Counted from the stretch's first letter, positions 23,463-43,659 are shown. The stretch is DNA of 57,872 nt from a virus (IMGVR_UViG_3300032315_000356:1-57872), one strand, 5' to 3'. Translations and numbers: made by a program. The notes: generated by a model from the sequence alone, not told the origin.

Positions 23463-24041
23463 ATGAGAATTGATTCAGACGTTGATATTGACACAGGCGA
23501 CCGTGACAAGATACTTAGCTTGATCAAATATATTCCTGCGTCGATGAGAAACGTAAATCCTATCAGGAAACATGCATCTGGGGTATACCTCACTAGTATA
23601 CCGTATGATCCTATTTATGACATGGCGTCTATCGACTACAAGGAAGCTGAAGATCGCGGATATTTTAAACTAGATTTACTAAATGTTCACGTCTACAATC
23701 TAGTTCGTGATGAAGAACATCTGATTAGCTTGATGCAAGAACCAGATTGGTCAATGTTGAAAAATAGGAAAGTTGTCGAGCAACTGATACACCTAGGTAA
23801 TCAATATAATACAATCAGACGAATGCCGGAACCCATAGATTCTATTCCTAGACTAGCGATGTTTCTAGCAGTAATCAGACCTGCAAAACGACATCTATTA
23901 AACAAGTCTTGGAAAGAGATCAACGAAACAGTCTGGGATAAAGATGATACTGGCTACCATTTTAAGCGTTCGCATAGCCTTGCCTACGCAATGCTGGTTG
24001 TGGTTCATCTTAATCTTTTGACAGAAGCTGCACGAGTTTGA
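23463..24041 (+). CDS. DNA polymerase III alpha (DnaE)-like, C-terminal catalytic half
   Basis: SDVDID (cf. PDFDVD), KHASGV (cf. HAGGV), YFKLDLL (cf. KFDFLG), LAVIRP (cf. ALFRPG), GYHFKRSHSLAYA (cf. GYGFNKSHSAAYA). Confidence 0.88.
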   Translation: MRIDSDVDIDTGDRDKILSLIKYIPASMRNVNPIRKHASGVYLTSIPYDPIYDMASIDYKEAEDRGYFKLDLLNVHVYNLVRDEEHLISLMQEPDWSMLKNRKVVEQLIHLGNQYNTIRRMPEPIDSIPRLAMFLAVIRPAKRHLLNKSWKEINETVWDKDDTGYHFKRSHSLAYAMLVVVHLNLLTEAARV

Positions 24042-24148
24042 TCACCTGCTAGGAATCACGTTCGATCAAAGGGCCGGGAACTTGTATCAAGATAGCCAAA
24101 GAGAAACGCAAGAAAAACTTAGCAAAAGTAATCAAGGCATCCGTTTAA
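24028..24148 (+). pseudogene. def: Peptide deformylase C-terminal remnant (frameshifted)
   Basis: LHEFDHLLGITFDQRAGNL (HExDH..G..F metal motif) from 24028, then a frameshift at about 24085 into IKIAKEKRKKNLAKVIKASV*. No start codon and no N-terminal motifs. Confidence 0.7.
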
Positions 24149-24512
24149 TGAACATGACGCTTTTGCGCTTTGCTCGCTTTTTCATGAAATCGGTCATGCT
24201 AACGACCGGGCCATAGACGATATCTAAGCTCTTATTATTAAAAGTACGAATATAAGGTTTAAAGATACCCCATTCTTCTTTTAAGAACATGTTAATGGGA
24301 ATCGTTCTATTTGATTCCCACCACCAGACTTCACCTAATTCTAAGAATTTTGTTCTTAGTTCAGGGAGAACCAATGAACCATAGTCATACATTGTAGTGA
24401 CCATGTAATCTCGATTCTGAATAATACCAACATAGTCTTGCTGGGCATAGGAACAGACCGTTATAAACGGGTAATTTTCGTTTAGTTTCTTAAAAAAATC
24501 GGGTGTATTCAT
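24132..24512 (-). CDS. Conserved hypothetical protein
   Basis: One of only two credible minus-strand genes; preceded by GTAAATA on the minus strand (24522-24528); WWWESNR..PIN.FL motif. Confidence 0.75.
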   Translation of the reverse strand: MNTPDFFKKLNENYPFITVCSYAQQDYVGIIQNRDYMVTTMYDYGSLVLPELRTKFLELGEVWWWESNRTIPINMFLKEEWGIFKPYIRTFNNKSLDIVYGPVVSMTDFMKKRAKRKSVMFIKRMP

Positions 24513-24566
24513 GCTAAAGTATATTTACACCAAAATTTCCAAAGTTAATATTTTCATATTATAGGG

Positions 24567-24574
24567 CATAAATA
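24567..24574 (+). promoter_or_regulatory. Late-type promoter (TAAATA box)
   Basis: CATAAATA upstream of a structural gene, divergent from the minus-strand GTAAATA at 24522-24528. Confidence 0.7.
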
Positions 24575-24594
24575 TAGATACTAAGGAGCATCTC

Positions 24595-25371
24595 GTGTAC
24601 GCAACGTCAGTATTCTATTATTTTCAAAGACAGATCGTGGTACTCCTATTAGGAAACTCAGTGAGGAAATACATGCCGCAGTATAGCAAGCCCCTCGTAC
24701 TAAACAGAGGGGTGGATAATCAGATACAATTCCAGTTTTTGGATCAGCAGCAAAAACCAATTGACATTACTGGTAAAGAGATCATCTGTAGGGTTATCAA
24801 CTATGATGGCACTGAAGTTCTTATCCAGAAAGCTCTTAGTTTACAATTAGCATTGACTGGAATCGCAGCACTTGAACTTAATGCCGCAGAAGTCGAGGAC
24901 ATTCCTGCACAGAAATGTTATTATTCATTGGAGATTCCCGTTGGCGCATTTAACTATCCGGTATTCGTAGATCAGAATGCAGGAGCTCGCGGGGTGTTGA
25001 ATGTAGTTGACTCGGTGCTCCCGTCGTTCGTGCCGTCATCCAACATTACCATTCCAACTGGTCAACCTTTCCCTAATCTCAATAATCAAACCGAGTGGAC
25101 ATTGCCAGCCAATGCCCGCGCATACTATAGCAGCGTGATCAATACTCAGGATAATCCAATACTCACGATCCAAACCACATTCAACGAATACAACGGCAAT
25201 GTTCTCATTGAAGGATCCTGTCAGCCAGACTCTGAGTGGTACCCGATAACTGATGATTACTACGCCAATACGAGTGACACGGTTGGATATACTATCAGGG
25301 GCTATCATCCATTCGTGAGAATGGTATTCGAATCTGACTCAGGTGAAGTTACAAAGATTTTGGCTAGATAA
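24595..25371 (+). CDS. Putative virion structural protein (Ig/BppU-like N-terminal domain)
   Basis: SD aaggag with GTG start; RGVDNQIQFQFLDQQQKPIDITG...YYSLE pattern; late promoter. Confidence 0.6.
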   Translation: MYATSVFYYFQRQIVVLLLGNSVRKYMPQYSKPLVLNRGVDNQIQFQFLDQQQKPIDITGKEIICRVINYDGTEVLIQKALSLQLALTGIAALELNAAEVEDIPAQKCYYSLEIPVGAFNYPVFVDQNAGARGVLNVVDSVLPSFVPSSNITIPTGQPFPNLNNQTEWTLPANARAYYSSVINTQDNPILTIQTTFNEYNGNVLIEGSCQPDSEWYPITDDYYANTSDTVGYTIRGYHPFVRMVFESDSGEVTKILAR

Positions 25372-25385
25372 CATAACCGTAATAC

Positions 25386-25413
25386 TTGATTTTTATATCA
25401 AATATGCTACGAT
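25386..25413 (+). promoter_or_regulatory. sigma70-type promoter, ATG near +1
   Basis: TTGATT-16bp-TACGAT; ATG at 25419 with no SD. Confidence 0.55.
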
Positions 25414-25418
25414 AGATT

Positions 25419-26390
25419 ATGTTTGATGTCCTAACCCTTATTCAAGGCAAGAAAAAGCGTACACAAGATGGCTGGTATAGCTTCAACGCTCCCTGCTGTC
25501 ATCATCGCGGACATAATGTTGACAAAAGAATGCGAGGTGGCATCAAACAAAACGGTGACAACTGGTCTTTTCATTGTTTCAACTGTGATTTTAAGTGTAG
25601 CTTTATATTAGGTAGACAATTTTCGTTTCCAACCAAACAGTTTCTTGGTTGGTTGGGTGTCGACGAGAGTCAGATTACCAGATGGAATCTAGAAAATCTA
25701 CGACATAAGGACTTGATCGAATACGTTACCGAGACCAAACAAAAATTTAATCTCAAATTCGATGAAGTTCAGCTTCCTGTAGCTGAACTATTAGACGAGA
25801 ATAATCCAAAGCATAAACGATTCGTAGATTATGTCAACAGTAGGGGACTGAAAGCTACGGATTATCCGTTCATGGTTACTCCAGATGACCATGGAAGAAA
25901 TAATAATAGAATCATCATTCCCTATACATACAAGAATAAGATAGTGGGACACACTAGTCGTTATCTTGATAACCGCGCACCCAAATTTATTAAAGATCAA
26001 CAATCTGGTTTTGTATTTGGATATGATTTACAGAAACCAAACTGGGAAGTATGTATTGTAGTTGAAGGCATATTCGATGCACTGTCTCTTAACGCATTAG
26101 CACTTACACACAACACAATTAGTGAAGAACAAGCAGGACTTATACGTAAACTTAATAGACGAGTCATTGTCGTCCCTGATCAGGATAAAACAGGATTACT
26201 GATATGCGAGCAAGCATTAGAGTTCGGGTTTCAAGTATCTATTCCAGCCTGGGGTTCAGAAGTAAAAGATGTGAATGATGCCGTACTAAAATATGGTAAA
26301 CTACCGACACTTTTATCTATCTTACAAAATGCGACAACCAGTAAAATCAAAGTAGAAATGGCGAAAAGAAAACATGATAAAAAACTTTAA
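25419..26390 (+). CDS. DNA primase
   Basis: Zn finger (PCC...HCFNC), RIIIP, TOPRIM VVEGIFDAL, PDQD, KDVND. Confidence 0.92.
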   Translation: MFDVLTLIQGKKKRTQDGWYSFNAPCCHHRGHNVDKRMRGGIKQNGDNWSFHCFNCDFKCSFILGRQFSFPTKQFLGWLGVDESQITRWNLENLRHKDLIEYVTETKQKFNLKFDEVQLPVAELLDENNPKHKRFVDYVNSRGLKATDYPFMVTPDDHGRNNNRIIIPYTYKNKIVGHTSRYLDNRAPKFIKDQQSGFVFGYDLQKPNWEVCIVVEGIFDALSLNALALTHNTISEEQAGLIRKLNRRVIVVPDQDKTGLLICEQALEFGFQVSIPAWGSEVKDVNDAVLKYGKLPTLLSILQNATTSKIKVEMAKRKHDKKL

Positions 26391-27774
26391 CGCAGATGTG
26401 CAAGAACTATTCTTGAGAATGATGGTTACGAATGCGGAACTTTATACTCGTGTTATGAATATCATGAATCCAGCAAATTTTGATCGTACTCTTCGACCCG
26501 TTGCAGAATTCATAGTAGAACATTCTACAAAGTATAGCGTGATGCCTGATCCTTTGCAGATCAAAGCAACGACCGGAACAACTATCGATACTATCCCTGA
26601 ACTAGATGAGGGGCACTACGATTGGTTCTTGGAAGAATTTGAATCATTCACAAAACGTCAGGAGCTTGAACGAGCTATCCTCAAAGCAGCCGACATGCTT
26701 GAGAAGGGAGAATTCGATCCAGTCGAGAAACTGATCAAAGACGCAGTTCAGATCAGCCTCCAACGCGATATGGGCACTGATTACTTTGCTGATCCCAAAC
26801 AGCGCATCCATAAGTATTTCAACGCAGGCGGACAAGTCAGCACTGGCTGGCCTCAGATGGATCGGTTGTTGTATGGTGGATTTAGTCGCGGAGAGTTAAA
26901 CATATTCGCAGGTGGTTCTGGTTCTGGTAAGTCACTTGTCATGATGAACATCGCGTTAAACTGGCTACAGAGAGGCCTCAGCGGCGTGTATGTCAGTCTC
27001 GAACTATCAGAAGAACTGACTTCGTTGCGCACAGATGCGATGTTGACCAGCATGAGTACGAGAGACATTCGTAAGGACATCGAAACGACTGGCTTGAAGG
27101 TCGTGATGATGGGCAAGAAGTCCGGTAAGTATCGGGTTAAGGGTATGCCGGCGCAAAGCACTGTAAACGACATTCGTAGCTATCTCAAAGAAGTTCAGAT
27201 TCAGACCGGAATCAAGGTAGACTTCGTGATGATCGACTACCTCGATCTTGTCATGCCGGTCAGCGTGAAAGTCAATCCTAATGATCAGTTTATCAAGGAT
27301 AAGTATGTGTCAGAAGAACTTAGAAACCTAGCGAAAGAACTAGGCGTTCTCATGGTAACTGCGTCGCAATTGAATCGTTCAGCGGTTGAAGAGATCGAGT
27401 TCGACCACAGTCACATCGCAGGAGGTATCTCAAAGATCAATACTGCTGACAATGTATTTGGTATCTTTACTTCTCGTTCGATGCGCGAACGCGGCAAATA
27501 TCAGATCCAATGTATGAAATCTCGTAGTTCGACTGGCGTAGGTCAAAAGATTGACTTAGAATATAACATCGAGACTATGCGTATTACTGATGAAGACCCA
27601 GAAGGTGATAGCAAGCCACCGCCTAGTGCAAGCCAGATCATGAGTCAGATCAAGAATACTAGCACTGTCGGGACGAATATAGATATATCACATCCATCCA
27701 TTGAAGAAAAACGAGTAGTTCCTGACATTCAAAGCGCAAAATTAAAATCTCTATTAAATTCCCTTAAGAAATGA
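26374..27774 (+). CDS. Replicative DnaB-like helicase (T4 gp41-like)
   Basis: GGSGSGKS, VSLELSE, IDYLDL, TASQLNR, MKSR. Confidence 0.93.
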   Translation: MIKNFNADVQELFLRMMVTNAELYTRVMNIMNPANFDRTLRPVAEFIVEHSTKYSVMPDPLQIKATTGTTIDTIPELDEGHYDWFLEEFESFTKRQELERAILKAADMLEKGEFDPVEKLIKDAVQISLQRDMGTDYFADPKQRIHKYFNAGGQVSTGWPQMDRLLYGGFSRGELNIFAGGSGSGKSLVMMNIALNWLQRGLSGVYVSLELSEELTSLRTDAMLTSMSTRDIRKDIETTGLKVVMMGKKSGKYRVKGMPAQSTVNDIRSYLKEVQIQTGIKVDFVMIDYLDLVMPVSVKVNPNDQFIKDKYVSEELRNLAKELGVLMVTASQLNRSAVEEIEFDHSHIAGGISKINTADNVFGIFTSRSMRERGKYQIQCMKSRSSTGVGQKIDLEYNIETMRITDEDPEGDSKPPPSASQIMSQIKNTSTVGTNIDISHPSIEEKRVVPDIQSAKLKSLLNSLKK

Positions 27775-27788
27775 TTTTGTTTCTTTCG

Positions 27789-27797
27789 AATAAATAC
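27789..27797 (+). promoter_or_regulatory. Late-type promoter
   Basis: AATAAATAC at the head of the internal-protein cluster. Confidence 0.65.
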
Positions 27798-27819
27798 TGT
27801 TAGTAGGATTTTACTCTCA

Positions 27820-28065
27820 ATGCAGAAAAAAACAAAAAGCCTCCTCGAGGAGTTGCAGTCGTATAGCGAGACTCGTGATATCAATCACGTGATCGAATCT
27901 CGTGCATCTAATATTATCACGAGTGCTATCAACTTGATAGAACTAATGCAGCGTAATTATTCTCCTGAAAAAGCAGAACTACTCGAAAAGAAATTGCTTA
28001 GTGCTATCCGAGGCAAAGATCAAGCAAGATTTTCCAAAAGCTTGAGGAAGAAAAATGAAAATTAA
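27820..28065 (+). CDS. Conserved hypothetical protein
   Basis: SD agga; KSLLEEL...IESRA.NII.SAINLIE helical motif. Confidence 0.7.
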   Translation: MQKKTKSLLEELQSYSETRDINHVIESRASNIITSAINLIELMQRNYSPEKAELLEKKLLSAIRGKDQARFSKSLRKKNEN

Positions 28066-28699
28066 TGAAATAGGATTACCCAACATAATCGGAGACGTAG
28101 GTGCTGCTGCATTTAGAAGTAAAGGTCAGCCTGGAACCACAATCAAGTCTCAGATGATTCAGGATATTTTCATCAAAGATTTTGTAGGAGATGCAGCAAC
28201 TTCATTGAGCAATGGAATCTTGGGAGGGTTGATTGACCCAACTGCAAAATCAACTACCACTAGTAATCCACCAATTACATCCGAATCGAGGTATGACAAG
28301 ATGAATCATGTCTTTGAAAGCATTATTAATATCAACGAACAAGCAAAGCTAAGAACAATCAGTGATTTTATGATGGATTGGTTTACTTTGTATATGAAGG
28401 GGGTAAATTGGGAATCGAGCAGAGCAGTTGTTCAACAAAATCTCAACAAATTACAGGATGAATATCCCAGGAACGTAAAAGAAAATCTCACGACTTTAGC
28501 AAGAATTGGACTAGCATTAATAAGTGTTAATGTCGGAAGAACGCCAGCGGGCGCCCCACCGGAATTCAAAAAAGCTCAACAACAAGAACTCGCATCCGTG
28601 GAAGAGCTTAAATCTGACCTCGATAACTTGAGCAATAGCAACCCCCAAGCTTATAATGAATTAGTTAGAGCTTTAAAGCCAGTCAACATCACAGGATAA
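28055..28699 (+). CDS. Putative internal head protein
   Basis: MKINEI N-terminus; internal (I/V)xE sites. Confidence 0.6.
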   Translation: MKINEIGLPNIIGDVGAAAFRSKGQPGTTIKSQMIQDIFIKDFVGDAATSLSNGILGGLIDPTAKSTTTSNPPITSESRYDKMNHVFESIININEQAKLRTISDFMMDWFTLYMKGVNWESSRAVVQQNLNKLQDEYPRNVKENLTTLARIGLALISVNVGRTPAGAPPEFKKAQQQELASVEELKSDLDNLSNSNPQAYNELVRALKPVNITG

Positions 28700-28702
28700 A
28701 TT

Positions 28703-29572
28703 ATGCTTACAGAAGGCGGCTCGATGCCCGGCGTCGGTGCGATTCATATTAGTGAGATCGAACCTACTCTTAAATCATTGGAAAAAGTATTAGGCATCGA
28801 TTTGCGTAATAACACTCTGGGTAGTGTCGGCAAGAAACAGTTCTCGGGTGATATCGATGTCGCCATCGATATCAAGCCAGATGATATTCCTGCCTTTGTT
28901 GAGAAACTAAAGTCTATTCCTGAGATCATGGAACTTGCTAAAAGTTCAGTGATCATGACTAAAGTTAAGATTTCTGGGTATGATCCCGAGAAAGAAGCGC
29001 CAGGAAAGTCACGAACGGGATTTGTTCAAGTTGATTTTATGCCCGGCGATCCAGGTTGGATGAAGACATTCTACCACGCTCCCCATGAGAAAGACTCGAA
29101 ATATAAAGGTGTCTACAGAAATATTTTGATTTCGACAATCGCTGCATTTCTTGATCGCAAAGATTCTGAAGAAAAGATACCAGACGGTAGATCACTGCAA
29201 TCTGAGCGTTATATGTGGAGTTCAGCAGATGGATTAGTCCGTGTCAAAAGAACACCCGAACCTAACAAAAAGGGAGACGGGTACACAAAGAAAAATATCA
29301 ACAAGATCATCGATGGTCCCTACAAGAATCCAGACGAGATCGCCAGAGTACTTAAGCTTGATAATGCAGATGACTTATATTCATATGAGACATTACATAA
29401 GGCAATGGACAAGAATTATCCACCTGAACTAGTCAATAAAATACTAAAAGATTTCGCCAACAACTCAGTGATCAAAGACGCGGGCGTTCCGGATGACATC
29501 AAATCTGGATTATCTGAAGCGAAGATAGGGTCTACCGAATGGTTTAGGATATTACTGGATACCATATTATGA
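28703..29572 (+). CDS. Pol-beta superfamily nucleotidyltransferase, putative virion-packaged
   Basis: LGSVGKKQFSGDIDVAID (GS...DxD) and a third Asp in VQVDFM; N-terminus MLTE-GG. Confidence 0.75.
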   Translation: MLTEGGSMPGVGAIHISEIEPTLKSLEKVLGIDLRNNTLGSVGKKQFSGDIDVAIDIKPDDIPAFVEKLKSIPEIMELAKSSVIMTKVKISGYDPEKEAPGKSRTGFVQVDFMPGDPGWMKTFYHAPHEKDSKYKGVYRNILISTIAAFLDRKDSEEKIPDGRSLQSERYMWSSADGLVRVKRTPEPNKKGDGYTKKNINKIIDGPYKNPDEIARVLKLDNADDLYSYETLHKAMDKNYPPELVNKILKDFANNSVIKDAGVPDDIKSGLSEAKIGSTEWFRILLDTIL

Positions 29573-30702
29573 AGATTAGAGAGATTCTCGGTGAGTCGCG
29601 TATCCTAGCAGAATCAGCTAGAATCCAGCATGCGGAAGATATACTCTTTTGGGAAGGTAGTAAAGGTGCAGTTCGTGCCATCCAAAGTCTAATCAACATG
29701 GAGAAAGGTGGCAATAAAGCTACTACTGTCAAGTGGGATGGAAGTCCCGCTGTTATTTTTGGTAGAGATGACAATGGTGAATTCATATTTACTGACAAAA
29801 GCGGGTTTACTGCCAGAGGATATGATGGCAAAGCTAAATCAGGCAAAGACTTAAAGAACATGTTCTTGAACCGTTCAGGTGGCAAGAACAGAGAGAATCC
29901 TAGTTATGTGAACTTCGCTACGAATATGCAGAACGTTTTCGATGTATTCGCTAGAGCGGTTCCGCGAGATTATAGAGGTTATTTCAAGGGTGACCTGTTG
30001 TACTTCAATACTCCACCGATAGTGAATGGCCATTACGCGTTCAAACCTAATGTAGTAGAATATTATGTTCCGATCAACACTACATTAGGCAAACAGATAG
30101 GTCAATCTAAAGTAGGTGTAGTGATTCATCGTCAGATTGACGATATGGGCAACGAAAGCCCGTTAACGGACGGTAAAGTGTTGCGTAGCGGAGAATTATT
30201 AGTAGTTCCTCCAGTAACAGTAGAACAACCACCGCAGGTAGATATCAACGCAACTAACAAACTGATGTCAATCGCTCGTACACATGGGCGCGATATCGAT
30301 ATGTTGTTGGATGATAGTGAGTTGCGTGAAAAGAAGATAAGTGATTTTGCTAACATACTCTATACTTACGTGAATAGTAAAGTAGACACGGGTCTAGCTA
30401 ACATAGGCGCTGATTTCCAGCAGTGGTTAGCATCCAGTAAAGTAAGTACAGTCAAGCAAGCTAAAATAATCCAGCATATATCTGATAATCTTACAGGCTG
30501 GCAAGCACTATGGACATTGGTTGCAGGCATTATGAATGTAAAGAATGGCATCATCGCACAACTCGATAAGAGTAGTAGTATCAAAGCTACGACTGCAGGT
30601 CAAGAAGGTGGTGAAGGATATGTCATCGCGGATCCACAAGGAGATATCAAACTTGTAAATCGTAGCGGATTTACTGCGGCCAATCGTGCGGTTCAAAGGT
30701 AA
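29569..30702 (+). CDS. Ligase/covalent nucleotidyltransferase-like protein, putative virion-packaged
   Basis: TVKWDGSPA (KxDG motif I), KGDLLY, EGYVI (motif IV), IKLVNR (motif V); N-terminus MKIREILGE-SRILAE-S. Confidence 0.7.
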   Translation: MKIREILGESRILAESARIQHAEDILFWEGSKGAVRAIQSLINMEKGGNKATTVKWDGSPAVIFGRDDNGEFIFTDKSGFTARGYDGKAKSGKDLKNMFLNRSGGKNRENPSYVNFATNMQNVFDVFARAVPRDYRGYFKGDLLYFNTPPIVNGHYAFKPNVVEYYVPINTTLGKQIGQSKVGVVIHRQIDDMGNESPLTDGKVLRSGELLVVPPVTVEQPPQVDINATNKLMSIARTHGRDIDMLLDDSELREKKISDFANILYTYVNSKVDTGLANIGADFQQWLASSKVSTVKQAKIIQHISDNLTGWQALWTLVAGIMNVKNGIIAQLDKSSSIKATTAGQEGGEGYVIADPQGDIKLVNRSGFTAANRAVQR

Positions 30703-30735
30703 ATCATACCCAAATCCGATTTTTTTTACATTAGG

Positions 30736-34393: not shown

Positions 34394-34615
34394 ATGATCG
34401 TTTACAAAACCACCAATAATTTATTAGGTAAGTGTTTTATTGGCAAAGATGCTAATAATCTCCGATCCTATTTGGGGGCTGTCAAGGCTCTACCCAATGC
34501 CGTCAACACTCACGGCAAAGAAAATTTTGAAAAAAATACGCTAGAAAACGATAGTATAGAACTACTGTCTATTGACGGGAAACGAATTCGGTCTTATAAA
34601 GAGGATAATTTATAA
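34394..34615 (+). pseudogene. Degenerate GIY-YIG (Seg-like) homing endonuclease remnant
   Basis: MIVYKTTN..LGKCFIGK....YLGAVKAL.NAV..HGKENF.K..LE matches the Seg pattern IYKTTNLING K.YIG...YLGSG..L..AI.KYG.ENF.KEILE, but with YIG>FIG, GSG>GAV and truncation at 73 aa. Confidence 0.75.
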
Positions 34616-37233
34616 TGGCCATCTTGCAAATCTCTAGGATACAGCATCGATCAGGCAATCAAGTTGACTTACCGCAGTTAGCTGAAGCCGAATTAGGATG
34701 GGCAACCGATACCAAACGACTTTTTATCGGTAAAACTACACCTAACGAAAATATCGAAGTGATGACTGCTTATTCGAATATAAGTTTTAGTCAAATCACA
34801 GGTGCGATAGGCAACTTAAATATAAATCCAGTAACACTAGCGAACGGGCAAGCTCTCGTGTACGATGGCTCGAATTGGGTCAATCGCGGCGGCAATGCAG
34901 GCGGCTTGATCACGCTGGGAAACGTGTCAAATGTTAATATCGAAGGCGGCGGCATTGGATACGTGCTAGAAACAGACGGTCTAGGAAATCTATCTTGGAC
35001 TCCTAAGTCAACCATTGTAGCCTATATTCAAAATGTAACGAAAGCTAACCCTGCAGTAGTCACCACTACACAAGACAATTTTTTCACCGATGGCGCTGCA
35101 ATTACGATTACTAATGCAGTGGGGATGACCCAGTTAAATGGTAATTCTTATTATGCCAACGTGTTGACTTCTAATACTTTTTCGCTATATACTGATTCTT
35201 CTCTAACTACTCCTGCAAATTCATCTGCGTACACTGCATATGGCTATACAACTGTAAGTGCTACTACGGTAAACACTAATCTTATTACAGTTGCAGCAAA
35301 CGTACAAGCACTGTTGACGGTCAATGCCCCAGTCAGATTTACTGGAAATATCGCAGCTAATTCGGGTGGCAATCTAACAGGATTGCTTCCTAACGTAACG
35401 TATTATGTAAAATCTACACCTAGTACTACTACGATGACAGTATCTAGTGAATTGCTAGCCAATGGAGTAGCTGGAAACATAGTAGTACTATCAACCGCTA
35501 CTAGTTTATCGGCCGCTGTTTATCAAGAGGGCGGCCGAGCCGTATCGTTTGCGATTGCCGGCAATAGTGTTGGTGCAGGCGGTTCCAACTCGACTATTCA
35601 ATACAACAACACCAATCTATTAGACGGCGACCCCGATTTCACATACAATGATTCTACCAAATTACTAACTTTAAACGGCAATGCTAATGTAGGCAACTTA
35701 AATGCAACTGGTGTATTGACGGCCACTAGATACATTTCTAATATAGCAACTGGTACTGCTCCATTATCTGTTACTTCAACCACGCAAGTAGCCAATCTCA
35801 ATGTTGCTACTTCTGGTTCAGTAGTTAACGGCAATTCGAATGTTACTATTCCCGCAGCAAATGGCAATGTCAACATCAGTGCGGCAGGGAATGCCAATAT
35901 TGTTGTTGTAACTGGTACTGGTGCAAACGTTGCTGGCACGTTAAGAGCGACCGGTAATGCTAACGTCGGCAATATCGGTGCTACTACGGCGATCTTTACT
36001 ACAGGAAACATCACTACTATCAACAGTGGTCTGTTGCAGAACGGCAACTCAAATATAAATATCGCTCCAAACAGCAGTATTACATTCTGGGCTGTGGGCG
36101 TACCAAGATTCGTGGTGGGTTCGGATGGGGCTAACGTCACCGGTACATTTGGCGTGTCAGGCAGCGCGAATATTGGCCAATTCTTAGCTGCTGAGCAATT
36201 ACGTGCAACTGCAAACGTAACTGCCCCGCAACTCATCTCTAACATAGCAACTGGTACTGCCCCATTCGTAGTGACTTCAACTACACAGGTAGCAAATCTA
36301 AGCGTGGCTACTGCCGGCGCCGCAACAAACGCAGCAGCATTATTGCAAAACTCATCAAGTGCAACTACGGTTTATCCAACCTTTACTACATCAAGTGCAA
36401 ACGGTAACTCAAGTGCAGTATTTAATACGGCTATTAGTGCAAACTTAGCAAACGGTGCTATTATAGCAACGACATTTGTAGGTAACGTAACAGGTAACAT
36501 TAGCGGTACGTTGACTGCTCCGGGTTCAAATACTCAGGTAATATTTAATGACACCGGTAACGCAAACGCTACATCAGGGTTGACATTTAACAAATCTACT
36601 AATCTTCTCACCGTTACCGGAAACGTTAGCGGTGGCAATCTAACAACGGCAGGAGTACTGAGTGTTACCGGTAATGCTAATGTTGGCAACATCGGTGCTA
36701 CTACGGCGATCTTTACTACAGGCAACATCACTACCATCAACAGTGGATTATTGCAGAACGGCAACTCGAACGTAACTATTACAGCGAATGCTAACGTAAC
36801 TATCAATGCTGTGGGCGGAGCAAGAATCATTGCTACCTCAACTGGTGCTAACATCACCGGCACGTTGGGGGTGTCAGCCAACATTTCGGGTTCAAACGTG
36901 ATTGCATCTGCTTATCTTATTCGGTCAGTAGGAACAGGTATCGCAGCAGCAGGAACTACCCAAGGTACTGCTACGGCAATCAACAAAGAACTTAATCTCA
37001 TCAGCAGTGTTCCGTCTACTGCAAATGGAATCGTTTTGCCGACGGCAGTTGCTGGTATGGTACTTACTATCACTAACTCGACTGCGAATGCAATGCTCGT
37101 CTATCCAGCATCCGGTGCAGCAATCAATAGTCTTGCAACTAATGCGGCATTTACTCACACTGCCGGTGCAACACTGCAATTCGTCGCCCCTACTACTACT
37201 CAGTGGTACTCAGTCGGCGCAACATACGCTTAA
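34615..37233 (+). CDS. Tail fibre-like protein with Mtd-N-like N-terminus
   Basis: RIQHRSG...LPQLAEAELGWATDTKRLFIG, an FCCH-like domain (VTKANPAVVTT...GMTQLNGNSYY) and Asn/Gly/Thr repeats shared with the first gene. Confidence 0.8.
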   Translation: MAILQISRIQHRSGNQVDLPQLAEAELGWATDTKRLFIGKTTPNENIEVMTAYSNISFSQITGAIGNLNINPVTLANGQALVYDGSNWVNRGGNAGGLITLGNVSNVNIEGGGIGYVLETDGLGNLSWTPKSTIVAYIQNVTKANPAVVTTTQDNFFTDGAAITITNAVGMTQLNGNSYYANVLTSNTFSLYTDSSLTTPANSSAYTAYGYTTVSATTVNTNLITVAANVQALLTVNAPVRFTGNIAANSGGNLTGLLPNVTYYVKSTPSTTTMTVSSELLANGVAGNIVVLSTATSLSAAVYQEGGRAVSFAIAGNSVGAGGSNSTIQYNNTNLLDGDPDFTYNDSTKLLTLNGNANVGNLNATGVLTATRYISNIATGTAPLSVTSTTQVANLNVATSGSVVNGNSNVTIPAANGNVNISAAGNANIVVVTGTGANVAGTLRATGNANVGNIGATTAIFTTGNITTINSGLLQNGNSNINIAPNSSITFWAVGVPRFVVGSDGANVTGTFGVSGSANIGQFLAAEQLRATANVTAPQLISNIATGTAPFVVTSTTQVANLSVATAGAATNAAALLQNSSSATTVYPTFTTSSANGNSSAVFNTAISANLANGAIIATTFVGNVTGNISGTLTAPGSNTQVIFNDTGNANATSGLTFNKSTNLLTVTGNVSGGNLTTAGVLSVTGNANVGNIGATTAIFTTGNITTINSGLLQNGNSNVTITANANVTINAVGGARIIATSTGANITGTLGVSANISGSNVIASAYLIRSVGTGIAAAGTTQGTATAINKELNLISSVPSTANGIVLPTAVAGMVLTITNSTANAMLVYPASGAAINSLATNAAFTHTAGATLQFVAPTTTQWYSVGATYA
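36721..36877 (+). repeat. Dispersed repeat shared with 445-601; partial copy at about 35950-36052
   Basis: actaccatcaacagtggattattgcagaacggcaactc and ggagcaagaatcattgctacctcaac occur in both fibre genes. Confidence 0.9.
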
Positions 37234-37247
37234 GAAAGGAATTACTA

Positions 37248-37415: not shown

Positions 37416-37424
37416 GGCACAGAC

Positions 37425-38048
37425 ATGAACAAGATAACCCTCACGTTATTAAAAGATATCTGCCCGAGAACAAAAGAAGTAGTCTTAGCCAAATACGTCG
37501 AGCCACTGAACACCATTGGTGAATATTTTGGTTTGTTTGAAAATTCACGACGAATAGCGGCATTCTTAGCACAGACAGCACATGAATCTGGTGGCTTTAA
37601 CGTCACTAGAGAAAATTTAAACTACTCAGTTGCAGGATTGAATAAAACCTTCAGGAAATATTTCCCTACAGTAGAATCGGCAGTACCTTACGCGAAAAAA
37701 CCAGCGAAGATCGCCAATAAGGTCTATGCAAATCGCATGAGCAATGGTCCTGAATCTTCGGGCGATGGATATAAGTTCCGCGGCCGCGGCCTCATTCAGT
37801 TAACCGGAAGACAAAATTATACAAGATTTGCATTGTCAATTAACAAAACGATAGATGAAGCAATTGCATATATAGAAACACCGCACGGTGCGGTGGCATC
37901 AGCGGGTTGGTTCTGGAATGTAAATAAGTTAAATATTTATGCTGATAAAGGCGACTTCATTGGGCTTACTAGACGCATCAACGGAGGAACGATCGGGCTT
38001 GCAGATAGAAAGCACCATTATGCCCTCGCTTTAGCAGCATTGAGCTAA
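37425..38048 (+). CDS. Glycoside hydrolase family 19 endolysin
   Basis: FLAQTAHESGGF, ENLNYS, RGRGLIQLTG, TRRINGG. Confidence 0.93.
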   Translation: MNKITLTLLKDICPRTKEVVLAKYVEPLNTIGEYFGLFENSRRIAAFLAQTAHESGGFNVTRENLNYSVAGLNKTFRKYFPTVESAVPYAKKPAKIANKVYANRMSNGPESSGDGYKFRGRGLIQLTGRQNYTRFALSINKTIDEAIAYIETPHGAVASAGWFWNVNKLNIYADKGDFIGLTRRINGGTIGLADRKHHYALALAALS

Positions 38049-38059
38049 TAAGGAATAGT

Positions 38060-40582
38060 ATGGCACAGCCCAATTGGATCACAATTGCAGGTAGTATAGG
38101 TTCATATCCTTCTAATGTAGAAATGGCTACCACATTTCAACTGCAAGCGCAGGCAGTATTACCTGCGACCACTGTGTCATATGCTATTATTAGCGGAAAT
38201 TTACCTCTAGGGGTGACGATGAATGAAGCCGGATTGATTTCTGGAACGCCCGGATTAGTAACAGCCAATACTACATATTATTTCGTAGTTCGAGCAACTG
38301 ACAATCTACAAAATATTAGAGACAGAACATTTTCTATGGAGGTGTCTGGCGTGTCGGGTCCTCAATTTGTAGATTCGATCGGTCCCGTTGTAGTAAATGA
38401 TAGCACCTGGGTAGAACTGCAAGTAGGATATACTAATCCAGTTCCAACGAATCCGGTCGTCATCAGAGTAGTTCAGGGACAATTACCACCAGGCATAGAG
38501 ATAAACACATCTGGGATTATCAGAGGATATGCTGCTCCTCCTTTACTTAATGTTACTTTACCCACAGTAGTTACCTCTGCGACTACAATTAGTTCTAATA
38601 ATATTATTGGGTTTAGCACGGCTGACTTTTCTATAGGTAGACCAGTCAAATTTAGCGGTTCAGTATTCGGCGGTGTAACTCTTGGACAAACGTATTACAT
38701 CAAGTCAATCCTAAATGAAACTACGTTTACGATATCAACTACGGTAGACGGCCCTGTATACCCGTTGAGTAACTCAGTCGGAAACATGACAGTTACCTTG
38801 CCCGGAGTAGAAGTAGGGCAGCCAACCATACAGACATATTCGGTCATTTTAAATCTAGAAAGCCCTTTAGGTCAAGACACTACTTCTTATGCTATCACAG
38901 TAATAAATCAAAATGCTCCGGTAAGTTTTGGCGGCCCGGGTTATCCGCCTAATTCACGGGTGCCTACACTATATAATATCAGGCCACCTACCTATGACAT
39001 ATCAGCAGATCAAGAGAACTATAGATACTATTTGTTGCCACCTATAGGTACGGTAACTCCAGGAGTTACATATCCGTTGACAACGCCTGCATATGCAGGA
39101 CAGGCAGCGAGCGAAAATTATTTCTCATTCAGAATGATGGGTCACGATTTTGATGGAAATACACTTGAATACGCTTTCTCAGATTTGCCCGAATGGTTAA
39201 CTGGAGACCCCGAGACTGGATGGCTTACTGGTAATCCTGTTATCGCAGACAACAGCATCAGCGAATATTATTTCAGTGTTTCAGTGAGAAAAGCTACGAA
39301 CCCAACAATCTCTACTCCTACTGTAAATTTCTCGCTAAAAGTAAGCAATGGCCTTTCAGGTGAAATAATATGGACCACAACGAATGATTTGGGACAAATC
39401 AACAATGGATCAATCAGTCTGCTCAACGTTTCAGCAACCTCTGACGTGCCACTGACATATAGAGTGATAGAAGGTGAACTTCCTCCTAATCTTGTATTAT
39501 TAGATAACGGTGAAATCTCGGGTGTAGTTGCATATCAACCCACGACTGCTCTCTTATCTTTGGCCACGATCACAGACTTCACTTTCACGATTGAAGCATT
39601 CTCATCTGATTATCCAGTCATCAAATCGACAAGAGAATTCACTTTGTCAGTATTCCAAGAATTCAATCAACCAACCGATACACTGTATATCAAATGTTCA
39701 CCTAGTATAGAAGATCGATATCTCATTGCGTCCTTGCTAGAAGACAACATTTTGATTCCTGATGATTATTTGTATCGTCCCAATGATCCTTATTTCGGTA
39801 AAGCAACTAGTGTCATATATGAACATGCATATGGCATTTATGCTAGTAGCTTCGATGAATATGTTGCTGCCATTACTAAGAATCATTACTGGAGAAATAT
39901 CACACTAGGTGAATTAAAAACTGCTATTGCACGTGATGCGAATGGCAACGTTATATATGAAGTCGTGTATAGTACGATTGTTGACAACTTAGTTAATCCA
40001 GACGGAGTAAGTGTACCAGAAGAAATTTACTGGCCTAGATTTATTCCATTAAATCTAGGACCATGGTACACAAGCGTGACTAATACATTCACTAGTTATG
40101 TATCTGCTACAGACGGAAGTCTATATTATACTAGTCTTTCGCCCGGCTATGCTAGGATACTATATCCGAATTCTCTCCCTGACATGCGATTTCGCGTTGG
40201 TCAAGAATTAGGCCAAGACTACAATGCTAGTATACTTCCCGTTTGGATGACCAGTCAGCAAATAAATGGGTCTACTACAGGATTCGTTCCCGCTTGGGTA
40301 ATTGCTTATACCAAACCTGGATATGCCGACATCATCAAGGATAACATCGAAACACAATGGAAAGACTCTTTGGGGCAATTAAAAACTCTTAATACGATCA
40401 ACTTCAGGATAGATAGATTTACGGTTAACAAGAGTATCACGTATAACTATGATAAAAATCTTAATCCAGCAGCTTGGACTGGCCTACCTAGCGGCACTCC
40501 TGTCCCCGATCCGCTCGACTCGAACGACTTTTACGCCCTCTTTCCTCGTAAAACAATTTTACCGGATCGCACCCAGTACTAA
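38060..40582 (+). CDS. Virion structural protein with putative Ig domains (baseplate-like)
   Basis: Repeated Y.+I.G.LP.G+.+...G.ISG.P Ig-like modules. Confidence 0.75.
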   Translation: MAQPNWITIAGSIGSYPSNVEMATTFQLQAQAVLPATTVSYAIISGNLPLGVTMNEAGLISGTPGLVTANTTYYFVVRATDNLQNIRDRTFSMEVSGVSGPQFVDSIGPVVVNDSTWVELQVGYTNPVPTNPVVIRVVQGQLPPGIEINTSGIIRGYAAPPLLNVTLPTVVTSATTISSNNIIGFSTADFSIGRPVKFSGSVFGGVTLGQTYYIKSILNETTFTISTTVDGPVYPLSNSVGNMTVTLPGVEVGQPTIQTYSVILNLESPLGQDTTSYAITVINQNAPVSFGGPGYPPNSRVPTLYNIRPPTYDISADQENYRYYLLPPIGTVTPGVTYPLTTPAYAGQAASENYFSFRMMGHDFDGNTLEYAFSDLPEWLTGDPETGWLTGNPVIADNSISEYYFSVSVRKATNPTISTPTVNFSLKVSNGLSGEIIWTTTNDLGQINNGSISLLNVSATSDVPLTYRVIEGELPPNLVLLDNGEISGVVAYQPTTALLSLATITDFTFTIEAFSSDYPVIKSTREFTLSVFQEFNQPTDTLYIKCSPSIEDRYLIASLLEDNILIPDDYLYRPNDPYFGKATSVIYEHAYGIYASSFDEYVAAITKNHYWRNITLGELKTAIARDANGNVIYEVVYSTIVDNLVNPDGVSVPEEIYWPRFIPLNLGPWYTSVTNTFTSYVSATDGSLYYTSLSPGYARILYPNSLPDMRFRVGQELGQDYNASILPVWMTSQQINGSTTGFVPAWVIAYTKPGYADIIKDNIETQWKDSLGQLKTLNTINFRIDRFTVNKSITYNYDKNLNPAAWTGLPSGTPVPDPLDSNDFYALFPRKTILPDRTQY

Positions 40583-40605
40583 ATAGAAGACGGAAATAGA
40601 GAATT

Positions 40606-42327
40606 ATGAGCCAAATAAACACAAACGGAATCAACGTAAACTATCCGGTACCGGGACAGAACAACAGTTCTCAACCATTCCGTGATAATTTTGCTGCGAT
40701 CAGAACAAATATCAATACGGCTGCAACTGAACTTACTGACCTAGAGTCTAAAGTCGTAGTTAAAGCAGCACTTAACAATACCACTTTGAATAACGATATG
40801 GCAAATACATTGATTAGTAATGCCTCAACACGTGGATTCAGGGCAACAACTTATAATCTAGGAAACGCACTATCCGGAACGATCCTAGTAGATGTGAATC
40901 GTGCTGATGTACAATATGGTGCAGTGACTGGAAATACTACTTTACAATTCGGCGGCTGGGCTCCTACTAATACCGAGAGCAATGTTGTACTAAGACTAAC
41001 AATATCTAACACTGCCGCTGTTATTTCATTACCAAGTGCATGTGTCTCGTCCAATAATAATTATGGAGTGACTATACTTGAAAATTATGCCAACATTGGC
41101 AACACTGCTACGATTACTGCTCCTGCCAATGTTGGCATCATGGAATATACATTCAGTTCGTTAGATTGCGGAAATACTATCACAGTTTCCCCGGTAAATA
41201 GAGCGTTTCAGACTGCTCAAATTATTACTCGTGACCCGCCTCCCACTGGATTGATGGGAGACGTTAACGGTGATGTTGCAGTAAGTGCCTCAGTTAGTCA
41301 AATACGGGTAACTCAAACTGCTAATGTCCCTACTGTCATAACTGCAAACACTTTTACCTCTACCGGAAGTACCATCGTTGGTACTGAACTTACTATAGGT
41401 ACACTAGCTACTGGCAATGTGAGTATAGGAATGATACTGTCAGGGGCAGCAGCTAATACATACATCACTGGATATACCTCTGGGTCAGGGTCAGGCTCTA
41501 AGTGGGTAGTGAATCAGAGCCAGTCTGTAAGTTCCGGGCCAATCGACGGCAAGACGGGAATCTATGTGGATGCGGTGACCAATAACCCCGTTCTTTACGT
41601 AGGAGTGCAAACATCCGGAGTTGTGCAAGAAGGCATGATTCTTTCAGGATCCGGAGTCACTGCAAATACTTGGATAGTGCAGAATCTTGCTGGATCCGGA
41701 TCGGGTTCTTTATGGAGAGTCAGCACTTCTCAGTGGGCGACACCTACAACTATAAACGGGGCAATCGATGTGTTGACGGTTGCTAATACATCTGGTTTCT
41801 ATAGAGACATGCCATTAACATTTACCGGAAATACGTTTGGTGGAGCAAATCTTCTTCCTGGAAATACATATTATATTAAAGAAGTTGCAGATTCCAACTC
41901 AATAACCATCTCCTCTACACCAAGCGGCGGTATGGTAGTACTCGCTAATGCTTCGGGTAATATGTATCTCAATCCCGGATCATATCTATATGTTGCGACT
42001 AATAAATATAACTCAACTACATATGCTAGACAGACTACTAATACAACTGCAACTACTAATCTGATTACACTAGAAAACACAACCTACCTAGAAGTAAACT
42101 CACCTATCATCTTTACTGGCTCTACGTTCGGCGGACTAGAAGGAAATGTAGTTTATTATGTCAAGTCTAACGATTTGGGTAATAGTAAACTTACAGTTAG
42201 CCGTACTAGAGTTAATGGAATTGCCGGACCTGAAGTACTATTGACCACTGCGAACGGAAATTGCGTTGCAACTTGTTATACCGGCGGCAATGATATCTGG
42301 AAACGCATTAGCCTGACAGCTTGGTAA
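40606..42327 (+). CDS. Virion structural / fibre protein
   Basis: YPVPGQNNSSQPFRDNF N-terminus, repeated beta modules, WKRISL end; CTAAATA upstream at 40579. Confidence 0.75.
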   Translation: MSQINTNGINVNYPVPGQNNSSQPFRDNFAAIRTNINTAATELTDLESKVVVKAALNNTTLNNDMANTLISNASTRGFRATTYNLGNALSGTILVDVNRADVQYGAVTGNTTLQFGGWAPTNTESNVVLRLTISNTAAVISLPSACVSSNNNYGVTILENYANIGNTATITAPANVGIMEYTFSSLDCGNTITVSPVNRAFQTAQIITRDPPPTGLMGDVNGDVAVSASVSQIRVTQTANVPTVITANTFTSTGSTIVGTELTIGTLATGNVSIGMILSGAAANTYITGYTSGSGSGSKWVVNQSQSVSSGPIDGKTGIYVDAVTNNPVLYVGVQTSGVVQEGMILSGSGVTANTWIVQNLAGSGSGSLWRVSTSQWATPTTINGAIDVLTVANTSGFYRDMPLTFTGNTFGGANLLPGNTYYIKEVADSNSITISSTPSGGMVVLANASGNMYLNPGSYLYVATNKYNSTTYARQTTNTTATTNLITLENTTYLEVNSPIIFTGSTFGGLEGNVVYYVKSNDLGNSKLTVSRTRVNGIAGPEVLLTTANGNCVATCYTGGNDIWKRISLTAW

Positions 42328-42328
42328 T

Positions 42329-42571
42329 ATGGAACATCCATTCATTAATCAAGCTGATTTAACTAGCAAATCAACCGAAGAACTTCATGAAACTATATCA
42401 GGTCTTACTACAAAACTAAGTTTTGCACATAGAACTAGTAATACGGCCCTTATACAACAACTACAGATGGCACTAGAAAGCTATCGCACTCAACTCAGTA
42501 AAAAAATGGACGAGTTGTTTGTTAAACAAAAGATAGATACTAAAATCAAAATTCAGTCGGATAAACAATGA
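42329..42571 (+). CDS. Hypothetical coiled-coil protein
   Basis: MEHPFI...helical; coupled to its neighbours. Confidence 0.65.
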   Translation: MEHPFINQADLTSKSTEELHETISGLTTKLSFAHRTSNTALIQQLQMALESYRTQLSKKMDELFVKQKIDTKIKIQSDKQ

Positions 42572-43116
42572 ATATGCGAATTGAAAAAGACTTTTATTTT
42601 CAAACCGGGATACATTTTGAAAATAAGTACCACATTAACAGCTATGAAATCGTGCTTTCTATGCTAGTCGAGACCGAATCGGCTAGAGAAAAAAATGTAG
42701 CTATGGATAGGATAACATATTTCTTATCTGACGTTGTGCAGAATTCAGTAATCGTAAATTACAAGGATACTGATGCAATTCAATTATACAAGAATGCTAA
42801 TTTAAAAGTATGCGAACTTCCAGATGATCCACATGACCAGATATTTGCCATGGTGTTGCTTCTGAAGTTAAATGCGATCACTGAAGGCCGAATAAAAATT
42901 ACTGATATGGTTTTGGGATCGTCACTCAGTGATGGAGTAAAATATAATATTGTGTCTGAAGTGGCAGAATGTGCATTTACCAAGAAGGCTTGGTGGAACC
43001 AAGCCGATGGTAGTGTCAGCGAAAACGAAGACACGAATGACAAAATAGTAAACCTATTTGCTAAAAAAGTCTGGGTAGAGCTAGGATTAATTTGGAAAGA
43101 AAGAGTTAAAAAATAG
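42568..43116 (+). CDS. Hypothetical protein, possible degenerate T-fold (QueD-like)
   Basis: IEKDFYFQTGIH...HINSYEIVL...P.DQI.A pattern loosely parallels QueD; ATGA coupling. Confidence 0.55.
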   Translation: MNMRIEKDFYFQTGIHFENKYHINSYEIVLSMLVETESAREKNVAMDRITYFLSDVVQNSVIVNYKDTDAIQLYKNANLKVCELPDDPHDQIFAMVLLLKLNAITEGRIKITDMVLGSSLSDGVKYNIVSEVAECAFTKKAWWNQADGSVSENEDTNDKIVNLFAKKVWVELGLIWKERVKK

Positions 43117-43117
43117 G

Positions 43118-43146
43118 TTGACAGTTAGCGGTAAATCATGTATTGT
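43118..43146 (+). promoter_or_regulatory. sigma70-type promoter, ATG at +1
   Basis: TTGACA-17bp-TATTGT; ATG at 43153. Confidence 0.8.
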
Positions 43147-43152
43147 TACTAT

Positions 43153-43659
43153 ATGATTACAGATAAATTTGGACAATTTATTTACTCTGAAAATGAGTTA
43201 ATCGATGTGTATATGACTGATCCTGATACTACGCTAAAGCGAGTGTTCGTATCTGAACCAATACAGTTTGATACAAGATTAAACTTGAAAAACACTCCTG
43301 AAATGATTCAGTATCTAACGAGCGACCAATCTATCACTGAGTTTGATCAGGAAAAGCAATCAATTTGGTTCATTCCTGATGATTATAAAAATTTCGACAT
43401 CGCCAAATTCGTTTTAGACCAGTGTTCAACCGAAGCAGAGTTGCAACGTGCTGGCGAAGAATTGCTTCTTTATCAAGAGCGAGACATGTTCATACTCCTT
43501 CGTTACTTAAAGTATCTTGTAGATACGATGAGAGCCAATAACTTAGTGTGGGGCGTGGGACGAGGGTCGAGTGTAGCCAGCTTTGTACTCTTCCTCATCG
43601 GGGTACATAAAATCAATTCTTTATTTTATCAATTAGATGTCAACGAATTTTTAAAATAA
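43153..43659 (+). CDS. DNA polymerase III alpha (DnaE)-like, N-terminal palm half
   Basis: RAGEEL...YLVD.MR.N...WGVGRGSSVASFVLFLIGVHKINSLFYQLDVNEFLK (cf. [35 protein letters not shown]). Confidence 0.88.
   Translation: MITDKFGQFIYSENELIDVYMTDPDTTLKRVFVSEPIQFDTRLNLKNTPEMIQYLTSDQSITEFDQEKQSIWFIPDDYKNFDIAKFVLDQCSTEAELQRAGEELLLYQERDMFILLRYLKYLVDTMRANNLVWGVGRGSSVASFVLFLIGVHKINSLFYQLDVNEFLK

Follow-up and report, generated by a model that had tools for sequence, protein, structure and literature searches.

The 57,872-nucleotide viral sequence IMGVR_UViG_3300032315_000356 (the window; this is the whole stretch of DNA that was analysed and the whole IMG/VR record, with a CheckV completeness of 17%) contains two small, widely separated genes that together encode a minimal catalytic core of the C-family DNA polymerase III (Pol III) alpha subunit, or DnaE. 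An initial annotation, made from the sequence alone, had proposed that this core is split through the palm into two genes. We call them C-half and N-half, after the part of the core that each encodes. Their open reading frames (ORFs) are:

23463-24041, + strand: C-half ORF, 192 amino acids, starting with MRIDSDVDID and containing HASGV, KLDLL, IRP and FKRSHSLAY
43153-43659, + strand: N-half ORF, 168 amino acids, with the C-terminus NEFLK; the frame is also open from an ATG at 43138 (173 amino acids)

Translation of the two ORFs confirmed both frames and their motifs as first annotated. The N-half carries the motif WGVGRGSSVASFVLFLIG, and the ORF ending at 43659 closes with ...GVGRGSSVASFVLFLIGVHKINSLFYQLDVNEFLK. 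The distance from DID to HASGV in the C-half, given earlier as about 20 amino acids, is in fact 26. The ATG at 43153 (168 amino acids), which had also been chosen before, is likely the conserved start of the N-half, because a methionine stands at the equivalent position in 37/37 IMG/VR N-half relatives and a stop codon immediately precedes it in five of the 37 (three distinct sequences). The two genes lie on the same strand, 19,111 bases and about 25 genes apart, and together encode 360 amino acids in two chains. The C-half gene is located upstream of the N-half gene; therefore, the halves cannot be linked by a frameshift, an intron or read-through.

Homology searches identified both products as polymerase fragments, with matches well above chance level. 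The N-half matches the Pfam family PF07733 (DNA_pol3_alpha) at 28.2 bits (cut-off 23.9; E 1.8e-6) over profile positions 23-94 of 260, and the PHROG family phrog_11127 "DNA polymerase" with an E-value of 2.9e-42. The C-half gave no match in the Pfam search; it matches phrog_11778 "DNA polymerase" at 1.5e-58. A profile built from 81 diverged C-halves matches nine distinct PDB sequences, every one of them a Pol III alpha, including that of E. coli (2hnh, 8.1e-6). In the alignment with 2hnh, K69-x-D71 falls on KFDFLGL (chain residues 553/555, counted from the printed alignment), IRP on ALFRPG (about 639-641) and FKRSHSLAY on FNKSHSAAYAL (about 755-766). The profile of 65 N-halves gave weak matches to the Thermus aquaticus (Taq) and E. 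coli alpha subunits (E 0.041-0.23), in which GVGRGSS...EFL is aligned with GPGRGSA...ERFL at residues 404-454 of Taq and 348-392 of E. coli.

The folds agree with these assignments. AlphaFold2 models of the halves, each folded alone, reached a pLDDT of 95.9 for the C-half and 89.4 for the N-half, and the Foldseek top matches of both models are C-family polymerases (E 5.3e-3 and 2.8e-2). Each model was also superposed on Pol III alpha, as had been suggested, with VIA-align. The bacterial comparators were E. coli 2HNH/5FKU, T. aquaticus 2HPI/3E0D, M. tuberculosis DnaE1 5LEW/7PU7 and PolC 3F2B. Residues 1-192 of the C-half align to E. coli alpha 397-781 with a Z-score of 9.1 (root-mean-square deviation 3.5, 182 residues aligned), to Taq 458-838 with Z 9.7 and to PolC 968-1296 with Z 9.6; C-family polymerases fill the 13 top rows, and the first unrelated one follows at Z 3.6. 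Residues 68-168 of the N-half align to E. coli alpha 279-393 with Z 9.8-11.0 and to M. tuberculosis DnaE1 305-413 with Z 12.1; here the 14 top rows all belong to C-family polymerases, the next one being at Z 2.1. The parts of the two proteins can be assigned as follows:

N-half residues 1-67: extra N-terminal domain, with no Pol III match among the rows listed
N-half residues 68-168: helical N-terminal part of the palm, with the GRGSS (nucleoside triphosphate (NTP)-binding) motif
C-half: catalytic strands with D6/D8/D10 and K69/D71, and shortened fingers with R139-P140 and K168..H171..Y175

Between them, the two genes encode a minimal C-family (Pol III alpha/DnaE) catalytic core as an N-terminal and a C-terminal half, which are collinear and complementary as originally described. 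The structural alignments place the break in the FERFLN/PDFDVD loop, between E. coli alpha residues 393 (end of the N-half) and 397 (start of the C-half). The last residue of the N-half and the first residue of the C-half are both used in these alignments, so that there is no room for intein pieces, and the Pfam search of both halves found no intein family. This agrees with the earlier statement that no intein flanks the break. The first two of the three metal-binding aspartates correspond to D401 and D403 of E. coli; for the third, D71 aligns at the position of E. coli D555 in the KFDFLGL motif of 2hnh. The equivalence of the DxD pair was established only through a contiguous relative, the protein P0148, whose DxD aligns to PDIDTD of a full-length DnaE.

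The termini of the N-halves are uniform. In two sets of relatives, 37/37 and 50/51 N-halves stop right after EF[LFI][KR] or one residue on, and the remaining one has DFLR. One N-half (L128) that seemed to lack a stop after EFLK was found to have it one residue later.

Natural forms in which the halves are joined provide direct evidence of this collinearity. P0148, a protein of 375 amino acids, was found among the best 150 of 380 C-half-matching representatives. Its residues 13-180 align to the N-half (34% identity, E 5e-23) and its residues 190-372 to the C-half (47% identity, E 2.4e-37). Its alignment with a full-length metagenomic DnaE runs unbroken over the junction (44% over 64 residues, E 5e-11). 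P0148 forms a cluster of its own, on a contig of 2,415 bases; its reality is supported by two further contiguous clusters, P0273 and P0274, of 376 amino acids each, which are 78-81% identical to P0148 and come from ENA and Logan. On sequence comparison, these rare contiguous forms join the halves exactly as predicted, and the collinearity is thereby confirmed. The source contig of P0148 was not found among viral contigs, and a scan of metagenome contigs gave two ordinary full-length dnaE genes. A joint alignment of P0148 with both sets of halves misplaced the N-halves onto C-terminal columns and was not used.

In a C-half tree (95 tips, FastTree, midpoint root), the three contiguous sequences group together in one clade with a support of 1.0. 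This clade is nested within a 12-tip clade of stand-alone C-halves (support 0.985), nine nodes from the midpoint root. Contiguity thus looks like a secondary re-fusion, a reading which holds only if the root lies outside the 12-tip clade, the tree having no outgroup. A search of the ESM Atlas with P0148, which serves as a lead only since it came without alignments, returned the family set PF07733 plus PF17657 in 26/30 hits. The three best-scoring Atlas clusters shown have 355-378 amino acids and 52-108 members; two carry PF07733 and PF17657 and one PF07733 only. Contiguous minimal forms may therefore be more widespread. Two other proteins, P0121 and P0122, were considered as N- plus C-half fusions and rejected; in them the N-half is joined instead to its downstream or upstream neighbour. 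Each is present on one contig only and may be a read-through or gene-calling effect.

The active-site residues are strongly conserved in the 81 C-half representatives taken at 50% clustering, which are 30-56% identical to the C-half of the window, and in the 65 N-halves. D6 and D8 are each present in 80/81 C-halves, D10 in 79/81 and H171 in 80/81, while K69, D71, R139 and P140 are invariant (each 81/81). The three catalytic aspartate equivalents claimed at the outset are thus kept in 79-81 of 81 relatives. In the N-halves, W133, G134, G136, R137, G138, S139 and S140 are invariant (each 65/65). When each half was compared with its nearest relative, the ratio of nonsynonymous to synonymous substitution rates (dN/dS) came to 0.054 (N-half) and 0.139 (C-half), each value from a single unsaturated comparison. 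Purifying selection acts on both halves, and the relaxed selection that would have spoken for decay was not seen.

The two halves also travel together. The C-half family comprises 5,741 clusters when grouped at 90% identity and, at 50%, 380 representatives with E<=1e-3, and the N-half is encoded by at least 592 IMG/VR stretches. Among named phage records, 96 have a C-half and 93 an N-half, and for the commonest genera the tallies (C-half/N-half) are nearly equal: Escherichia 34/34, Pseudomonas 11/11, Erwinia 8/8, Salmonella 8/8 and Klebsiella 11/10. The C-half was also found in 5/5 long IMG/VR contigs that had been chosen via their N-half. In two IMG/VR contigs about 95% identical to the window, both halves are present about 21 kilobases (kb) apart. 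These results bear out the co-occurrence proposed earlier as a check.

Co-folding of the two halves, another of the proposed checks, predicted a complex with an ipSAE of 0.91 in three runs, as compared to 0.00 for the best of three controls. The predicted complex has about 164 contacts, with a contact agreement of at least 96% among runs and a partner pLDDT of 91, and residues 1-67 of the N-half contact the C-half in it. The ipSAE mark was reached by 58/80 solved complexes and 2/110 mismatched pairs, a calibration that is rough here because own alignments were used. Halves of a split gene may also score high through their likeness to solved Pol III alpha structures. We predict that the halves bind each other as a non-covalent heterodimer, and the models suggest that the pair probably works as a two-piece enzyme.

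Much of a normal Pol III alpha is missing from this enzyme. The C-half spans 385 E. coli alpha residues with just 182 aligned and ends at the equivalent of residue 781. About 100 residues are absent between the RP and KSH motifs, and from DxD to the third aspartate there are about 60 residues vs. about 150 in E. coli. The PHP domain (PF02811) was found in 0/5 records (the window, the relatives G002 and G003, Paride and RaK2), while the control search matched 14/14 reference genomes. DNA_pol3_finger (PF17657) did not exceed its cut-off in any of these five records, of which the two IMG/VR relatives are 92-100% complete, the controls being positive. The sole weak PF17657 match, at 14.1 bits, falls inside the C-half gene of RaK2. 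The fingers motifs RP and KSHxxAY are present in the C-half, though the fingers region is much cut down. These data support the earlier description of an enzyme that lacks PHP and the C-terminal domains (clamp-binding/HhH and OB) and has kept little of the thumb and a strongly shortened fingers region, no family search for HhH or OB having been made.

Whether this arrangement had been described was left undecided in the initial annotation. It is already known, and the window represents one more, uncultured freshwater, member. Sections 3.4.1 and 3.5 of Iyer, Anantharaman, Krishnan, Burroughs and Aravind 2021 (Viruses 13:63, PMC7824862) describe a "minimal, split DNA polymerase III alpha" in the group 2.2 jumbo phages. 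According to these sections, group 2.2 phages hold no other Pol III domains, the split enzyme might help the family B enzyme in one-strand synthesis or repair, and it might model an ancestral Pol III (PMC7824862). Examples are Pseudomonas phages PA5oct and Paride, Klebsiella phage RaK2 and Agrobacterium phage Atu_ph07. The families phrog_11127 (N-half) and phrog_11778 (C-half) hold both halves, and some GenBank records label these genes "DNA polymerase III alpha" or "DnaE-like". In the relevant passage of a 2025 phage paper, a "DNA polymerase III DnaE" gene is listed without comment.

The window agrees with the group 2.2 systems in having two stand-alone proteins encoded by distant genes, one N-terminal and NTP-binding and the other C-terminal and Mg-/template-binding, with no other Pol III domains found and T4-like replication genes around them. 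It also agrees in gene context: the C-half is close to a primase and a DnaB-like helicase, and the N-half is followed downstream by Cpn10 and the clamp loader. It differs in three respects. Its halves are 36-55% identical to the copies in cultured phages; a DEDDh exonuclease stands just upstream of the C-half in the freshwater clade but not in five distant named phages; and the gap between the halves is 19 kb in the window vs. about 33-182 kb in named relatives.

As compared to bacterial DnaE and PolC, the phage enzyme keeps the palm fold, the GS loop, the lysine and third aspartate (KFDFLGL), RP, KSHxxAY and the order of these elements. However, it has 360 amino acids in two chains, whereas bacterial DnaE has about 1,160 in one. 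It lacks PHP, about 200 thumb-and-fingers residues, and the clamp-binding, HhH, OB and tau-binding parts. Its N-half has an extra N-terminal domain of 67 residues, and in relatives the phage enzyme coexists with a family B replicase. In cyanobacteria, a C-family catalytic subunit is likewise made from two genes, and there the DnaE halves are of full size, are ligated by a split intein and are broken at a different site. The phage halves, in contrast, have no space for an intein and are predicted to form a non-covalent heterodimer.

It is unusual for the active site of a replicative-type polymerase to be built from two very small proteins, and this split enzyme is very common in nature, with thousands of protein clusters. 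To the 2021 description our analysis adds the break at residue level, a controlled complex prediction, estimates of selection, re-fused natural forms, the clade-specific exonuclease linkage and a constant 126-amino-acid neighbour. Some of these additions may already stand in the supplements of Iyer et al. 2021.

The neighbourhoods of the two genes were compared over 30 C-half loci and 118 N-half loci, many of them near-duplicates, so that the counts overstate independence. Around the C-half, the order in the window is UvsW-like helicase, several small ORFs, exonuclease, 93-amino-acid ORF, C-half, 126-amino-acid ORF, primase and DnaB-like helicase. The genes of this block, apart from the C-half and the small ORFs, are:

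16856-18349, + strand: UvsW-like superfamily 2 helicase (phrog_16; ResIII, DEAD and Helicase_C domains; UvsW_N 21.5 bits, below the 25.3 cut-off), upstream of the C-half block
22633-23184, + strand: stand-alone DEDDh 3'-5' exonuclease, Rv2179c-like (PF16473, 3.6e-33; phrog_255), overlapping the start of the next ORF
23181-23462, + strand: 93-amino-acid ORF, with its stop codon immediately before the start codon of the C-half; no match in Pfam or PHROG
24132-24512, - strand: 126-amino-acid ORF, convergent to the C-half (phrog_11637, of unknown function, 1.3e-33); no Pfam match
25419-26390, + strand: primase (phrog_47/phrog_19 block), downstream of the C-half
26374-27774, + strand: DnaB/gp41-like replicative helicase (phrog_47/phrog_19 block), downstream of the primase

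The primase, the DnaB-like helicase and the DEDDh exonuclease in the gene string of the C-half had been recognized before and are confirmed here. The UvsW assignment stands on the helicase domains and phrog_16, while its UvsW_N domain stays under the cut-off. The exonuclease precedes the C-half in 19/30 loci, all of them in the environmental clade near the window, and was not found at the C-half loci of Paride, Atu_ph07, SCTP-2, Vibrio phage 2.275.O and RaK2. By tblastn, the 93-amino-acid ORF occurs at 7/30 C-half loci and adjoins the C-half in only three of them. The 126-amino-acid ORF adjoins the C-half in 26/30 loci, among them those of the five phages just named. No other neighbour of the C-half, the exonuclease included, is as constant, and this ORF is a candidate partner; an ESM Atlas search with it gave no lead. 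The order C-half, primase, helicase is also found in Paride, Atu_ph07, SCTP-2 and the Vibrio phage.

Around the N-half, the order is an 80-amino-acid ORF (111/118 loci), the 182-amino-acid ORF, N-half, the 140-amino-acid ORF, a Cpn10-like gene and the gp44-like clamp loader, the last of which had also been annotated correctly. The order downstream of the N-half is shared by Paride and RaK2. The neighbours of the N-half are:

42568-43116, + strand: 182-amino-acid ORF directly upstream of the N-half, with no Pfam or PHROG match; beside the N-half in 89/118 loci
43696-44118, + strand: 140-amino-acid ORF downstream of the N-half; 112/118 N-half loci
44121-44486, + strand: Cpn10/gp31-like co-chaperonin; 115/118 N-half loci
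44779-45705, + strand: gp44-like AAA+ clamp-loader subunit; 102/118 N-half loci

The window also encodes a T4-like RNA ligase and NrdAB. A sigma-70-like site at 22572-22600 (TTGACA-17-TATTAT, 11 of 12) stands before the string of exonuclease, 93-amino-acid ORF and C-half. Another at 43118-43146 (TTGACA-17-TATTGT, 10 of 12) stands before the N-half and would give a transcript with hardly any leader ahead of the ATG at 43153. Promoter-like sites number 13 per region as compared to 8.0-8.2 (standard deviation 2.8-2.9) in shuffles, and carry little weight.

Does the pair replicate the phage genome? The 57.9-kb window gave no match to the family B polymerase profile (PF00136), as the initial annotation had noted, and its large unannotated ORFs contain no polymerase domain. 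Because the window is only 17% complete, the absence of a family B polymerase from it carries no weight. PF00136 matched above cut-off in 5/5 named relatives (Paride, RaK2, Atu_ph07, SCTP-2 and Vibrio phage 2.275.O) and in 5/5 long IMG/VR relatives holding both halves. The family B polymerase is a single frame of 905-1103 amino acids in six of these ten relatives, and it is in two or three pieces in the other four (825 + 379 amino acids in Paride, 578 + 418 in Atu_ph07, 560 + 417 in G004 and in G005). Since it is in pieces in several relatives, such phages can carry two differently split polymerases; an intein/HNH-split PolB is reported in a passage of the MIJ3 paper. PolA is present in 0/5 relatives. 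The expectation that relatives would lack both PolA and PolB agrees with the result for PolA and is contradicted by that for PolB. The main replicase of the phage is probably a T4-like family B enzyme, and a replicase role for the split pair is unsupported.

We consider it probable that the pair is a heterodimeric accessory polymerase, the split minimal Pol III alpha (C-family, a Pol-beta-like nucleotidyltransferase) typical of the T4-related group 2.2 jumbo phages, with an assembly as predicted above. The preference of the initial annotation, a main multi-subunit replicase in which the pair is completed by further small subunits, is very unlikely. It drew on a 57.9-kb window without a family B polymerase and on the nearby exonuclease, primase, helicase and clamp loader, and it could further point to the metagenomic protein P0122 (JGI, 360 amino acids, one contig), in which the 182-amino-acid ORF is fused in frame to the N-half. 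However, the window is only about 17% of the genome, a family B polymerase occurs in 10/10 long or complete relatives, and five distant named phages lack an adjacent exonuclease. The four candidate subunits (at 20857, 18438, 15906 and 42568) received no direct support either: they have no Pfam family and no recognizable polymerase domain, any PHROG match is to a family without an assigned function, and the 182-amino-acid ORF at 42568 is missing beside the N-half in 29/118 loci. Still less credible is the view that the genes are decaying remnants of a broken dnaE, or that protein trans-splicing rejoins the halves. In its favour, both genes are small and lie apart, and split inteins are known in cyanobacterial DnaE. 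Against it stand the dN/dS values of 0.05-0.14, active-site residues that are invariant across relatives 30-56% identical to the C-half of the window, thousands of intact homologues, N-halves that stop at EF[LFI][KR] or one residue past it, structural alignments that reach the terminal residues of the halves, leaving no intein space, and the gene order, C-half upstream of N-half.

The main rival to an accessory polymerase is a repurposed DnaE-derived nucleotidyltransferase, which could add untemplated tails, cap or extend primers or RNA, or make a nucleotide product for host takeover or counter-defence. Little of the thumb is left and nothing of the clamp-binding, HhH and OB parts, no other DnaE domain was found in the five records searched, and the complete family B replicase in 10/10 relatives means that replication does not need the split enzyme. 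The Pol-beta-like fold is, moreover, common to many non-polymerase nucleotidyltransferases. On the other hand, the C-family-specific fingers motifs are near-invariant (R139-P140 in 81/81, H171 in 80/81), both genes are located within replication blocks (helicase-primase and clamp loader), and the structural matches are to C-family polymerases only. We regard this rival as improbable, though less so than the other two.

For an accessory polymerase, the following mechanism may be envisaged. The N-half would contribute the helical portion of the palm, whose invariant G-x-G-R-G-S-S loop would hold the triphosphate of the incoming nucleotide. The C-half would supply the beta-sheet with the metal-binding D8, D10 and D71 (D6 is also conserved) and K69, and its cut-down fingers (R139-P140, K168..H171..Y175) would face the template and the deoxynucleoside triphosphate. 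The two proteins would assemble without covalent joining or an intein and form one active site across a large interface. Alone, the enzyme would be a low-processivity, short-patch polymerase assisting the T4-like replisome. We infer that the pair copies a DNA template and acts in an accessory capacity, for instance in primer handling, gap filling or repair.

Several observations weigh against this interpretation. With single-sequence phmmer, neither half recovered a polymerase from the PDB sequences, and profiles were needed; the best match of the N-half profile in PDB has an E-value of just 0.041, and the Foldseek E-values are weak. The identification is therefore carried by the profiles, the VIA-align Z-scores and the absence of competing folds. 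The family B polymerase of this genome is deduced from relatives, none being seen in the fragment. An enzyme with no thumb and little of the fingers may not hold the primer-template stably. Public runs labelled as RNA gave just short pieces 85-90% alike, mostly continuing into unlike sequence, which does not speak for expression. No biochemical or genetic study of any member was found in the full-text literature, most subscription journals being outside its coverage.

We regard a stronger version of the accessory polymerase as less likely than not. Here the 360-amino-acid two-piece enzyme would be a fully active template-copying polymerase, the smallest C-family one known; in the freshwater clade it would use the upstream DEDDh exonuclease as proofreader and the clamp system of the phage, and it would serve as a second polymerase beside the family B replicase. 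If so, it might act in primer maturation or lagging-strand synthesis, gap filling or damage tolerance, and it would offer a natural minimal model of Pol III catalysis. The splitting and re-fusion of a polymerase active site would also be open to direct study, because the contiguous versions appear to have been re-formed from split ones.

Other features of the window were noted between the two genes. A protein of 377 amino acids encoded at 29569-30702 gave a full-length match to DUF6267 (1.1e-35). An 872-amino-acid ORF at 34615-37233, with weak matches to Mtd_N (24.6 bits, below cut-off) and E1_FCCH, probably encodes a fibre-like structural protein. Diverged direct repeats occur within it, with copies of 113-119 nucleotides at a spacing of 501-717 nucleotides. 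In a freshwater DNA run, the region 35660-36880 showed a depth peak and "goes back 915/916" joints, which suggests variants of repeat number or sequence in the population.

DNA near-identical to 22633-24041 is present in freshwater and lake metagenomes of several studies, with shares of 0.68-0.85 outside the possible source study. In a DNA run from another study (X3), several near-identical contigs together cover 23463-43462, no single one extending over all of it. The phage seems to be widespread in fresh water.

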